The notes below the pieces were generated by a model that did not search any database, had not been told where the DNA came from, and was given only the letters and a program-made list of their open reading frames with translations. Below, piece by piece: positions 1 to 2,889 of a stretch of DNA of 2,889 bases (position 1 is the stretch's first letter; every line of letters begins with the position of its first letter). A program made the position numbers and the translations under genes. This stretch comes from Giardia intestinalis (taxonomy: Eukaryota), in the NCBI GenBank assembly GCA_000002435.2, contig AACB03000027.1, one strand, 5' to 3'.

Positions 1-2889
1 GACGAGATTGCCCAACTCAGAGACGCACTTTCTGCACACGCGGTCTCCTGCAGATGGTCTGCAAACAGCTATCAACCAGCTCGCCGACAAGGTTCAGGAC
101 AACGGCAGCCTGGTTACACACTCATGGGCAATATCGTCCAGGGTGTGGAATCTGCAAGCGCCGAGGGCGAATTGCCAGTTACCATTGATGGACTTACGGC
201 TCGCATCCGGGCTCTAGAAGATGCCGCTGCGGAAGCAAGGACAGATGCCGAACGGAAGCGCCGAGATCTCCAGGCTTCAGAGGAGAGGCTCGCCGCCAGG
301 ACCCGAGATCTCTCGAATCCGAAGAGCCCGGGGCAGCACGCCCGAATCCAGGCCCTTGAAGAGGCCCTCCAAGCCCGTGACGAAGAGCTTGCCCGCCTCC
401 AGGCCGCAGCCGCCGAGCCCGCCATTGACTATCCTGCCCTTTCTCCGGGCCGCGGAAGAGGCTCGCGCAGCCGACGAAGCCCGGCACCGAGGCGCTGGAC
501 GATCTCCGGCAGCAGCTGCGCGCCAACGAGCAGGCAGACCGGGCTGCAATCCAAAGCGCCCTTGGCCGACTGGCAGAAAGGTCAAGGAGAACGAAGGCCT
601 CACAAAGCGCCTCGGAGGACGCCGTCGCTAGCGGAGCCCGCGGAGCCCGCGCCTGGCCCAGACCACCACCGACTACGACGCGCCTCCTGGCCGAGAAGGA
701 CGCGAGATCAAGCGCCTCCAGGAGGCCCTGCTCTCCCAGCCCACCGGGGACGTCCTGGCACAGAAGGACGAGAGATATGCCCAACTCAGAGACGCACTTT
801 CTGCAACGCGGTCTCCTGCAGATGGTCTGCAAACAGCTATCAACCAGCTCGCCGACAAGGTTCAGGACAACGGCAGCCTGGTTACACAACTCATGGGCAA
901 TATCGTCCAGGGTGTGGAATCTGCAAGCGCCGAGGGCGAATTGCCAGTTACCATTGATGGACTTACGGCTCGCATCCGGGCTCTAGAAGATGCCGCTGCG
1001 GAAGCAAGGACAGATGCCGAACGGAAGAACGCGAGATCTCCAGGCTTCAGGAGAGGCTCGCCGCCCAGGACCCGAGATCTCTCGAATCCGAAGAGCCCGG
1101 GGCAGCAGCCCGAATCCAGGCCCTTGAAGAGGCCCTCCAAGCCCGTGACGAAGAGCTTGCCCGCCTCCAGGCCGCAGCCGCCGAGCCCGCCATTGACTAT
1201 CCTGCCCTTCTCCGGGCCGCGGAAGAGGCTCGCGCAGCCGACGAAGCCCGGCACCAGCAGGCGCTGGACGATCTCCGGCAGCAGCTGCGCGCCAACGAGC
1301 AGGCAGACCGGGCTGCAATCCAAAGCGCCCTTGGCCGACTGGCAGAAAAGGTCAAGGAGAACGAAGGCCTCAGCAAGAGCGCCTCGAGGACGCCGTCGCT
1401 AGCGGAGCCGCGAGCCCGCGCCTGGCCCAGACCACCACCGACTACGACGCGCTCCTGGCCGAGAAGGACCGCGAGATCAAGCGCCTCCAGGAGGCCCTGC
1501 TCTCCCAGCCCACCGGGGACTCCTGGCACAGAGAGGACGACGAGATTGCCCAACTCAGAGACGCACTTCGCAACGCGGTCTCCTGCAGATGGTCTGCAAA
1601 CAGCTATCAACCAGCTCGCCGACAAGGTTCAGGACAACGGCAGCCTGGTTACACAACTCATGGGCAATATCGTCCAGGGTGTGAATCTGCAAGCGCCGAG
1701 GGCGAATTGCCAGTTACCATTGATGGACTTACGGCTCGCATCCGGGCTCTAGAAGATGCCGCTGCGGAAGCAAGGACAGATGCCGAACGGAAGAACGCCG
1801 AGATCTCCAGGCTTCAGGAGAGGCTCGCCGCCCAGGACCCGAGATCTCTCGAATCCGAAGAGCCCGGGGCAGCAGCCCGAATCCAGGCCCTTGAAGAGGC
1901 CCTCCAAGCCCGTGACGAAGAGCTTGCCCGCCTCCAGGCCGCAGCCGCCGAGCCCGCCATTGACTATCCTGCCCTTCTCCCGGCCGCGGAAGAGGCTTCG
2001 CGCAGCCGACGAAGCCCGGCACCAGCAGGCGCTGGACGATCTCCGGCAGCAGCTGCGCGCCAACGAGCAGGCAGACCGGGCTGCAATCCAAAGCGCCCTT
2101 GGCCGACTGGCAGAAAAGGTCAAGGAACGAAGGCCTCAGCAAGCGCCTCGAGGACGCCCGTCGCTAGCGGAGCCGCGAGCCCGCGCCTGGCCCAGACCAC
2201 CACCGACTACGACGCGCTCCTGGCCGAGAAGGACCGCGAGATCAAGCGCCTCCAGGAGGCCCTGCTCTCCCAGCCCACCGGGGACGTCCTGGCACAGAAG
2301 GACGACGAGATTGCCCAACTCAGAGACGCACTTTCTGCAACGCGGTCTCCTGCAGATGGTCTGCAAACAGCTATCAACCAGCTCGCCGACAAGGTTCAGG
2401 ACAACGCAGCCTGGTTACACAACTCATGGGCAATATCGTCCAGGGTGTGGAATCTGCAAGCGCCGAGGGCGAATTGCCAGTTACCATTGATGGACTTACG
2501 GCTCGCATCCGGGCTCTAGAAGATGCCGCTGCGGAAGCAAGGACAGATGCCGAACCGGAAGAACGCCGAGATCTCCAGGCTTCAGGAGAGGCTCGCCGCC
2601 CAGGACCCGAGATCTCTCGAATCCGAAGAGCCCGGGGCAGCAGCCCGAATCCAGGCCCTTGAAGAGGCCCTCCAAGCCCGTGACGAAGAGCTTGCCCGCC
2701 TCCAGGCCGCAGCCGCCGAGCCCGCCATTGACTATCCTGCCCTTCTCCGGGCCGCGGAAGAGGCTCGCGCAGCGACGAAGCCCCGGCACCAGCAGGCGCT
2801 GGACGATCTCCGGCAGCAGCTGCGCGCCAACGAGCAGGCAGACCGGGCTGCAATCCAAAGCGCCCTTGGCCGACTGGCAGAAAAGGTCA
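1..2889 (+). CDS. Internal fragment of a large gene encoding a repetitive coiled-coil protein made of 256-aa tandem modules. There is no start or stop codon in the window, and the reading frame is broken by copy-specific 1-2-bp indels. Those indels are probably sequencing errors, and the alternative is a decayed pseudogene.
   Basis: The majority-consensus unit is 768 bp, which is 256 codons with no stop on the + strand. The translation shows heptad-type Ala/Leu/Glu/Arg/Gln periodicity (...LTARIRALEDAAAEARTDAERKNAEISRLQERLAAQ...IQALEEALQARDEELARLQAAAAEP...ALDDLRQQLRANEQADRAAIQSALGRLAEKVKENEGLSKRLEDAVAS...). In the raw sequence the consensus frame can be followed piecewise. It is frame 2 for about 779-1031, frame 1 for 1033-1378, frame 0 for 1380-1520 and frame 0 for 1536-1568. 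It is then frame 1 for 1570-1683, frame 0 for 1684-1998, frame 1 for 1999-2127, frame 0 for about 2157-2406, frame 2 for 2408-2554 and frame 0 for 2556-2889. Minus-strand ORFs are low-complexity A/R/S/G/P-rich shadows. The strand call is confident, but gene intactness is not. Confidence 0.55.
12..780 (+). repeat. Repeat unit copy 1 (769 bp). It is the most indel-laden copy, with about 18 small indels relative to the majority consensus.
   Basis: Hand alignment against copies 2-4. Examples are 'ctgcacacgcgg' versus 'ctgcaacgcgg', 'ttacacactcatg' versus 'ttacacaactcatg', 'ggaagcgccgag' versus 'ggaagaacgccgag', and 'cttcagaggagagg' versus 'cttcaggagagg'. Further examples are 'gccgccagg' versus 'gccgcccagg', 'gcagcacgcccg' versus 'gcagcagcccg', 'ccctttctcc' versus 'cccttctcc', 'caccgaggcg' versus 'caccagcaggcg', 'gcagaaaggtc' versus 'gcagaaaaggtc' and 'gagcccgcggagcccg' versus 'gagccgcgagcccg'. 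Confidence 0.9.
781..1549 (+). repeat. Repeat unit copy 2 (769 bp), with about 5 small indels relative to the consensus.
   Basis: Differences from the majority are 'aacgcgagatc' (-1 near 1031), 'caagagcgcc' (+2 near 1378), 'gactcctgg' (-1 near 1521) and 'cacagagaggac' (+1 near 1533). The start has 'gacgagagatatgcc' in place of 'gacgacgagattgcc'. Confidence 0.9.
1550..2314 (+). repeat. Repeat unit copy 3 (765 bp), with about 6 small indels and one substitution relative to the consensus.
   Basis: Differences are 'cacttcgcaacg' (-2 near 1568), 'gtgtgaatc' (-1 near 1683), 'ctcccggcc' (a g>c substitution), 'gaggcttcgcg' (+1 near 1998), 'caaggaacgaagg' (-2 near 2127) and 'gacgcccgtcgc' (+1 near 2157). 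Confidence 0.9.
2315..2889 (+). repeat. Repeat unit copy 4. It is partial, with 575 bp before the window edge, and has 4 small indels so far.
   Basis: Differences are 'gacaacgcagcc' (-1 near 2406), 'gaaccggaag' (+1 near 2555) and 'gcagcgacgaagccccggcacc' (-1 then +1, near 2773 and 2783). It is otherwise base-identical to copy 2. Confidence 0.9.

Follow-up and report, generated by a model that had tools for sequence, protein, structure and literature searches.

A tandem array of near-identical 256-residue helical modules in a Giardia ankyrin-repeat gene whose published models are probably collapsed

The window is a 2,889-nucleotide (nt) stretch of DNA that appears to be part of a Giardia duodenalis gene, the orthologue of DHA2_152437 and GLP15_4739. 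It is composed of 3.76 head-to-tail copies of a 768-bp coding unit (256 residues) that fill positions 1..2889 on the + strand. The favored explanation, to which we give a probability of roughly 0.72, is that this gene encodes an N-terminal domain, a coiled-coil-like stalk bearing the array, and a C-terminal ankyrin domain, that its published models are collapsed, and that the stalk forms a segmented rod. Databases already list this gene, annotated as a hypothetical protein, but the protein collections searched appear to contain neither the multi-unit array nor an 85-residue segment of the unit.

The array is evident from the window itself. Direct repeats spaced 765-769 nt start to start run through the whole window in an independent repeat finder. 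Anchor-based cutting places the unit boundaries at 9, 778, 1547, and 2312, and the copies were aligned with MAFFT. Tandem Repeats Finder reports no repeat in the window, as its maximum period of 500 is smaller than 768. The window holds neither end of the array, and the count of 3.76 copies is thus a minimum. The array and its copies, with differences given relative to the majority consensus, are as follows.

1..2889, + strand: tandem array of the 768-bp coding unit, 3.76 copies, both array ends outside the window
9..777, + strand: copy 1, 769 nt, the noisiest, with 2 substitutions, 9 deleted and 10 inserted bases
778..1546, + strand: copy 2, 769 nt, the cleanest, with 0 substitutions, 2 deleted and 3 inserted bases
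1547..2311, + strand: copy 3, 765 nt, with 1 substitution, 5 deleted and 2 inserted bases
2312..2889, + strand: copy 4, partial, 578 nt, which stops at the window end

Summed over the four copies, the deviations from the consensus amount to 3 substituted, 18 deleted, and 17 inserted bases, or 0.65-2.7% per copy. Indels make up 92% of these differences, and nearly all differences among the aligned copies are one- or two-base gaps. Such a pattern is typical of errors in uncorrected long-read data and does not reflect divergence between the copies, which are essentially identical within the window's genome. The consensus is exactly 768 bp and, when concatenated, is open in one of the six frames. 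Because of the indel errors, the raw window has no long open reading frame (ORF) in the true frame. The correct frame is split into 15 stretches of 23-115 residues, and the longest ORF in any frame is 277 residues. Even copy 2 carries its frame in three pieces: 779-1033 (residues 1-85), 1033-1377 (residues 86-200), and 1380-1520 (residues 201-247). Antisense ORFs in the window were rejected as by-products of the GC-rich repeat, and neither strand of the window contains an Rfam family or a tRNA. The first-pass annotation, made from the letters of the window, had reconstructed a 256-residue repeat unit, and this unit is real; the translated consensus agrees with it residue for residue. The interval it was assigned, 781-1549, spans one period (copy 2), while the protein unit was written in another phase, starting from approximately position 1349.

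The source of the window is found in Giardia. Consensus positions 245-758 are identical at 514 of 514 nt to DHA2 contig AHGT01000037.1 (locus extract 7561-8074), and the same stretch is 94% identical to P15 contig ACVC01000171.1. The window protein is identical to DHA2_152437 over ~171 residues. DHA2_152437 (ESU36892.1, 1001 residues) belongs to G. duodenalis DH, of assemblage A2, and GLP15_4739 (EFO62623.1, 1000 residues) belongs to Giardia lamblia P15, of assemblage E; both are annotated as "hypothetical protein". Because of the 514/514 identity to DHA2 and the 94% identity to P15, the window is assigned by sequence to an assemblage-A-like G. duodenalis and to the orthologue of these two genes. 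The same perfect identity validates the consensus independently and identifies the indels of the window as errors. The unit is made up of a part that the two gene models contain and a part that they lack.

1022..1536, + strand: unit part 245-758 (NAEISRLQ...GDVLAQK, ~171 residues, GC ~0.69, GC content at third codon positions (GC3) 0.79), present in the DHA2_152437 and GLP15_4739 models
253-767, 1788-2301, and 2556-2889, + strand: further occurrences of unit part 245-758
768..1021, + strand: 254-bp unit part (DDEIAQLRDAL...TDAERK, ~85 residues, GC ~0.57), missing from the DHA2 and P15 models
1-252, 1537-1787, and 2302-2555, + strand: further occurrences of the 254-bp unit part

Codon usage agrees with this origin. 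The unit has a GC3 of 0.70-0.75, always encodes Lys with AAG, and prefers GCC, CTC, ATC, and GAC. A Streptomyces gene is expected to have a GC3 above 0.9, and the codon usage of the unit is unlike that expectation and in line with a Giardia gene. The unit has no blastn match in plasmid or phage records, no match among 185,579 bacterial and archaeal species genomes, and no match in JGI metagenome contigs, whether by protein pattern or by exact 36-mer. A surface or fibrillar protein of a high-GC bacterium such as Streptomyces was considered and rejected, given the GC3 of 0.70-0.75 and the bacterial genomes without a relative. The first-pass annotation had offered a high-GC bacterial coiled-coil protein as one guess, which is contradicted by the 514/514 identity to the Giardia contig. 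Its other guess, a giant repetitive cytoskeletal protein of a kinetoplastid or another protist, was right in kind; the organism is the diplomonad Giardia, not a kinetoplastid.

The only Streptomyces-labelled match is AKXV01000073.1, an orphan 767-bp contig of assembly GCA_000302615.1 ("Streptomyces sp. SS"). This contig is a circularly permuted unit with 82% nt identity and a GC3 of 0.75. It encodes a 255-residue "hypothetical protein, partial [Streptomyces sp. SS]" that fills the whole contig, is present in NCBI and UniRef, and is the sole match of the unit in the word-indexed protein search. Its 255 codons align with those of the window unit without a gap. With a single extra base (A or G), the contig becomes a closed 768-bp cycle that is open, stays in frame, and contains the same join LLRAAEEARAAD, and thus the array, with an identical unit length, is also present in a lineage whose DNA differs by 18%. 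A contig one base under the period is the expected look of a collapsed tandem repeat in a short-read assembly. AKXV01000073.1 is probably a contamination of the bacterial assembly by another Giardia assemblage or species, and it exemplifies how a eukaryotic repeat unit can enter databases with a Streptomyces label.

EFO62623.1 was found by an exhaustive HMMER search seeded with this Streptomyces-labelled unit protein, and ESU36892.1 is its cluster-mate. The exhaustive search also matched a 61-residue repeat protein, an epiplakin-like protein, and a bacterial protein with an EKDAEISRLH repeat; these three were dismissed as noise from repeats or coiled coils. Fragments of the gene were also found as a protein from Logan runs and as an 85%-identical protein from a European Nucleotide Archive (ENA) metagenome. 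No WB or assemblage B orthologue was found in the protein searches, a weak negative given that the word-indexed search also missed GLP15_4739, despite ~170 near-identical residues for the unit query and ~91% identity for the second query. Likewise, neither a multi-unit protein nor the 85-residue segment is present in the protein collections searched, with the same limit that a word-indexed search misses relatives.

The DHA2_152437 and GLP15_4739 proteins are 91% identical, and their loci are syntenic and located among ankyrin-repeat genes. Both models hold 0.67 of one unit, which runs from NAEISRLQ (DDEISRLQ in P15) to GDVLAQK and is followed by unique sequence. This repeat-derived part lies at about residues 523-691 in both. 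The 254-bp part is absent from both loci within 6 kb on either side of the gene. In ESU36892.1, an ankyrin domain at 915-992 (55 bits) is the only Pfam domain recognized, and the N-terminal ~440 residues have no Pfam match, ankyrin or other. The coiled-coil-like segments found by a COILS-style scan of ESU36892.1 all lie within 440-871, and none lies in 1-440. The full-length AlphaFold model of DHA2_152437, built on a two-sequence alignment, is all-alpha with a predicted local distance difference test score (pLDDT) of 39 and a predicted template modeling score (pTM) of 0.24, and is otherwise unusable.

The module is rich in Ala (21%) and Leu (12.5%), with Glu, Arg, Asp, and Gln together at 36% and strong hydrophobic residues at 21%. 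AlphaFold2 was run on the orthologous unit, i.e., the Streptomyces-labelled 255-residue protein, as a single chain. The model has seven helices of 7-57 residues with breaks at the Pro/Gly linkers, a mean pLDDT of 65 (46-87 per helix), and a pTM of 0.27, with no confident tertiary packing. An all-alpha-helical secondary structure is thus credible for the unit. Hydrophobic periodicity in sliding windows of 14-35 residues peaks at 3.5-3.6 residues with z scores of 7-10, a level reached by none of 300 shuffles. A hendecad periodicity (3.67), suggested by a coarse Fourier scan, was discarded when finer global and local analysis gave 3.5-3.6.

Coiled-coil propensity was scored by a re-implementation of COILS with the MTIDK matrix, which is not the reference program. 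Controls behave as expected of them, with GCN4 and tropomyosin at ~1 and myoglobin, lysozyme, and ubiquitin at 0. Depending on window size and weighting, 62-69% of unit residues score P>0.5 and 32-53% score P>0.9. Composition-matched shuffles place 14-17% of residues at P>0.5, and none of 200 reaches the observed value. The segments of the module, with unit residues numbered from AQLRDAL=1, are given below at their positions in the window.

818..943, + strand: residues 14-55 (ADGLQTAINQLADKVQDNGSLVTQLMGNIVQGVESASAEGEL), Gly/Asn/Val/Gln-rich, a low-confidence helix with an unweighted COILS-style P of ~0
947..1071, + strand: residues 57-98, the best heptad segment, 42 residues, a/d = ILILAAAKILLQ, containing the motif KNAEISRLQERLAAQDP
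1099..1185, + strand: residues 108-136, a heptad segment, 29 residues, a/d = AILLRLLA
1204..1418, + strand: residues 143-213, a predicted helix, 71 residues, coiled-coil-like in parts, with register shifts
1440..1511, + strand: residues 221-244, a short heptad segment (DYDALLAEKDREIKRLQEALLSQ), followed by a TGD linker
~1515-1585, + strand: a helix across the unit junction, residues 246-12 (VLAQKDDEIAQLRDALSATRS), after the TGD linker

In four of these segments, namely the junction helix (246-12) and residues 57-98, 108-136, and 221-244, the I/L/A core is clean and hydrophobic residues are nearly confined to the a and d positions. Clean single-register heptad runs are 22-42 residues long. The 143-213 helix has no single heptad register, with 11 of its 20 a/d positions being polar. 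The peptide that leads from unit end to unit start is GTCCTGGCACAGAAGGACGACGAGATTGCCCAACTC.

The Pfam matches of the unit are to coiled-coil families without exception. TMF_DNA_bd (PF12329) has a cut-off of 35 bits; two units joined artificially exceed it with 39.8 bits, and the single orthologous unit stays below it with 29.6 bits. ESU36892.1 has no TMF_DNA_bd match at E<=0.01. Searches of PDB sequences with the unit gave marginal matches only, to the coronavirus spike HR1 coiled coil (E 0.005), and no Foldseek match of the unit model had an E value under 6. The module is therefore supported, from predictions of this kind, as a segmented, partly coiled-coil helical unit. The first-pass annotation described it as a long coiled coil with short breaks. 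The heptad periodicity and the COILS-style coverage of 62-69% bear out the coiled-coil character, coiled-coil scores are not low across the unit, and no confident non-coiled-coil fold is found by sequence or by structure search. Residues 14-55 and the register shifts in 143-213 do not fit this description, which overstates the module. The helical breaks at the Pro/Gly linkers it named agree with the AlphaFold2 helices of the orthologous unit (pLDDT 65).

The encoded protein would be large and all-alpha. After the ~440-residue N-terminal domain would come a central stalk, built of amphipathic helices that show heptad character, and then the C-terminal ankyrin domain. In the window's genome, the stalk would be an array of at least 3.76 near-identical 256-residue modules. 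Each module is predicted to contain some six helices with Pro/Gly linkers between them; four or five of these helices are coiled-coil-like (22-50 residues each), and one region of ~45 residues is not. A segmented, flexible rod may form from these helices, either by pairing with a second chain or by folding back upon one another, and its length would scale with copy number. By analogy with other Giardia proteins that have ankyrin repeats and coiled coils, for which such a role has been proposed, the rod may act as a spacer in the Giardia cytoskeleton, holding the N-terminal domain apart from the protein-binding ankyrin domain. Unequal recombination or gene conversion, i.e., concerted evolution, would keep the array uniform.

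The main rival to an inter-chain rod is that the helices of each module fold back within one chain, producing beads on a string of helical bundles or hairpins similar to those of spectrin or ESCRT-III. Such an arrangement would suit short helices (22-50 residues) with Pro/Gly turns between them, and the 256-residue length, kept exactly across lineages 18% apart in nucleotides, is what a folding unit would show. Weak fold matches include helical hairpins, namely Shrub/CHMP4B and the ING4 dimerization domain, all at E of 6 or more. However, the unit has no Pfam match to a spectrin repeat or another bundle domain even at E<=1, and AlphaFold gives no confident tertiary packing (pTM 0.27). Moreover, four segments have narrow a/d stripes with hardly any hydrophobic residues beyond them, a pattern more in keeping with two-stranded coiled coils than with multi-helix cores. 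Folding within one chain is unlikely, though it retains more weight than the other alternatives.

The borders of the array carry traces of its history. The peptide LLSQPISDVLARK of the 5' flank, written in AT-rich codons, is nearly that of the unit, LLSQPTGDVLAQK, for which the codons are GC-rich. In the 3' flank, VSDESKPVDDLFLATHSS looks like a degraded version of the unit start, DDEIAQLRDALSATRSP. Because both flanks resemble unit sequence, the homogeneous array sits between old, degenerate edge copies. The unit itself may have been built from older, shorter duplications, as is weakly suggested by the alignment of residues 2-97 with 168-243 (score 68, with shuffles at 47.7 +/- 7.8 and no higher than 65). 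The motif [KR][DN]xE[IL]xxLQxxLxxxxP is found four times per unit (residues 83, 123, 229, and 252) and DYxALL twice. A KDKEIDRLR motif is also observed upstream of the array in ESU36892.1, at about residues 458-466.

Base composition changes sharply at the same borders. The gene spans 6001-9006 of the DHA2 locus extract and 6001-9003 of the P15 one. GC3 is 0.79 in the array part of DHA2 (locus 7561-8074) and 0.75 in that of P15. Elsewhere in the same gene it is 0.39-0.43, and in four neighboring genes it is 0.41-0.54. This step might have arisen from GC-biased gene conversion during homogenization of the array and is a small lead on recombination or gene conversion in Giardia. The neighboring genes at the DHA2 locus include a cluster of ankyrin-repeat (protein 21.1/ARP-like) genes at 1-801, 9087-10622, and 10577-15006 that is conserved between DH and P15. 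A neighboring 883-residue gene has a faint beta-helix match.

An extension of the segmented-rod explanation is that the array is a cytoskeletal spacer tunable by copy number, and that homogenizing recombination drove the jump in GC3 from ~0.40 to ~0.79 through GC-biased gene conversion. Module length is exactly conserved at 18% DNA divergence, and the copies within a genome are identical. We regard it as a rather improbable extension. If true, isolates would vary in copy number, which could alter the size of a cytoskeletal structure, and the array would bear clear marks of GC-biased gene conversion in Giardia, for which the biology of sex or recombination is still debated.

A very unlikely alternative concerns the array itself, which could be an artefact of long-read sequencing or assembly (rolling-circle or multiple displacement amplification concatemers, or over-expansion), with the 1001-residue DHA2 model being the true gene. 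Uncorrected indel errors are obvious in the window, both gene models read straight through the 0.67 unit with no Ns, and the protein collections are without a multi-copy protein, all of which would speak for an artefact. Yet each window copy carries its own error pattern, and the copies were thus read separately. The closed 768-bp cycle of AKXV01000073.1 is a collapsed-repeat signature in a different lineage. The 254-bp segment missing from the models is conserved in two independent sources (82% and 47% identity) and is under purifying selection. Finally, collapse of repeats that exceed the read length is documented for 454 assemblies. According to the P15 genome report, its 454 reads, with peaks at 250 and 500 bp, were too short to bridge repeats, and some repeat regions were collapsed (PMC3091692). 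With four lines of support, the array is held to be real in the genome, and the DHA2 and P15 models with their 0.67 unit are most likely the product of collapsed 454-based assemblies.

The conservation of the missing segment is found at several distances. The 254-bp part is present in the Streptomyces-labelled unit protein at ~80% identity and in a 47%-identical ENA metagenome fragment (ERZ27277194 k141_155295, 1-668), whose reading frame crosses the junction from unit end to unit start without interruption. In this fragment, the homologous stretch is apparently single-copy and lies between AT-richer sequence. A second ENA metagenome contig, ERZ28596764 (374-1222), encodes an 85%-identical relative of the N-terminal domain. 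Because of these 47%- and 85%-identical relatives, further Giardia-like lineages carry the gene. The ratio of non-synonymous to synonymous substitution rates (dN/dS) is 0.13 against AKXV01000073.1 and 0.10 against P15, and the frame is thus constrained coding sequence. Two Logan short-read contigs (SRR10662873, 10001-11401; SRR10368400, 44-1441) carry a 100%-identical N-terminal domain, and both end at codon 466. This break lies ~150 bp upstream of the array, and the last few bases differ between the two contigs.

The least likely alternative is that the module is not a coiled coil and is instead made up of proline-punctuated amphipathic helices that bind membrane or lipid, as in exchangeable apolipoproteins or perilipins, for which the prolines between helices, a global Fourier peak at 3.55-3.65 with none at exactly 3.5, and the high Ala (21%) and modest strong-hydrophobic (21%) content could speak, whereas the local periodicity of 3.5-3.6 instead of 3.67, helix lengths that are irregular and not 11- or 22-mers, the lack of aromatic-rich, wide hydrophobic faces, COILS-style scores far above those of composition-matched shuffles, and Pfam similarities that are all to coiled-coil families speak against it.

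Several points weigh against the array-bearing, segmented-rod explanation. About one third of the module, including one block of ~45 residues, is not coiled-coil-like, and the coiled-coil call depends on the re-implemented COILS scan, not the reference program, and on low-confidence monomer models (pLDDT 65 and 39). One noisy window is the only record of the array in an assemblage A genome. Isolates may also differ in copy number in reality, and DH and P15 may carry a true 0.67-unit allele. The cytoskeletal role is proposed purely by analogy, and searchable literature contains no mention of the gene identifiers DHA2_152437 and GLP15_4739.

If the models are indeed collapsed, the consequences are mainly practical. 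The DHA2_152437 protein is probably much larger than annotated and would gain at least ~770-1000 residues (three to four full units), and a conserved segment of 85 residues is missing altogether from the DHA2 and P15 models. An error of this type affects proteomics searches, gene-tagging designs, and comparative genomics of Giardia. The locus can also serve as a worked example of repeat collapse in short-read assemblies.

Among known systems, the closest are DHA2_152437 and GLP15_4739, which are the same gene, in which the repeat is preceded by a unique N-terminal domain and followed by a C-terminal part with coiled coil and ankyrin repeats. They differ in that their models contain ~171 of the 256 residues of one unit, whereas the window contains at least 3.76 units.

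The coiled-coil families matched by the unit, i.e., the TMF/ARA160 region (PF12329), ADIP, SHE3, and Cast, share its heptad-type pattern. The PF12329 match covers only ~47 residues around KDDEIAQLRDAL, and the similarity most likely reflects convergence of coiled-coil sequences and not homology.

Large tandem-repeat cytoskeletal and antigen proteins are found in kinetoplastids and other parasites. The Giardia gene resembles the repeat proteins of parasitic protists in having long, near-identical coding tandem repeats that are under-represented in draft assemblies. It differs from those of kinetoplastids in that the window is from a diplomonad, and protein searches gave no homology to them. The collapse of repeats in short-read assemblies is a general problem that has been reviewed (PMC6868369).

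The Giardia head-stalk proteins are similar in kind. As two later papers describe, these proteins combine long coiled coils with ankyrin repeats (Elmendorf 2005, via PMC3243723 and PMC3499766), and many Giardia ankyrin-repeat proteins localize to the ventral disc and lateral crest (PMC3243723). In the current WB annotation, the ankyrin-only family comprises ~267 genes and is named ARP-1, formerly protein 21.1 (PMC7000408). GASP-180 is described in PMC3499766 as having ankyrin repeats followed by a coiled coil. Shared features are the organism, the presence of ankyrin repeats and a long coiled-coil-like region in one protein, and, at this locus, ankyrin gene neighbors. Compared by description, the ankyrin domain of GASP-180 is N-terminal, whereas here it is C-terminal and the protein starts with the 440-residue N-terminal domain. 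The stalk also differs, being composed here of tandem, near-identical 256-residue modules. Because its ankyrin domain is C-terminal, the protein is filed as the same kind as the head-stalk proteins and not as a member of the family. The protein is of an ordinary kind whose real size is probably under-reported. None of these findings would surprise a specialist. The gene adds a modular ankyrin and coiled-coil protein to the large and mostly uncharacterized set of Giardia cytoskeletal candidates.

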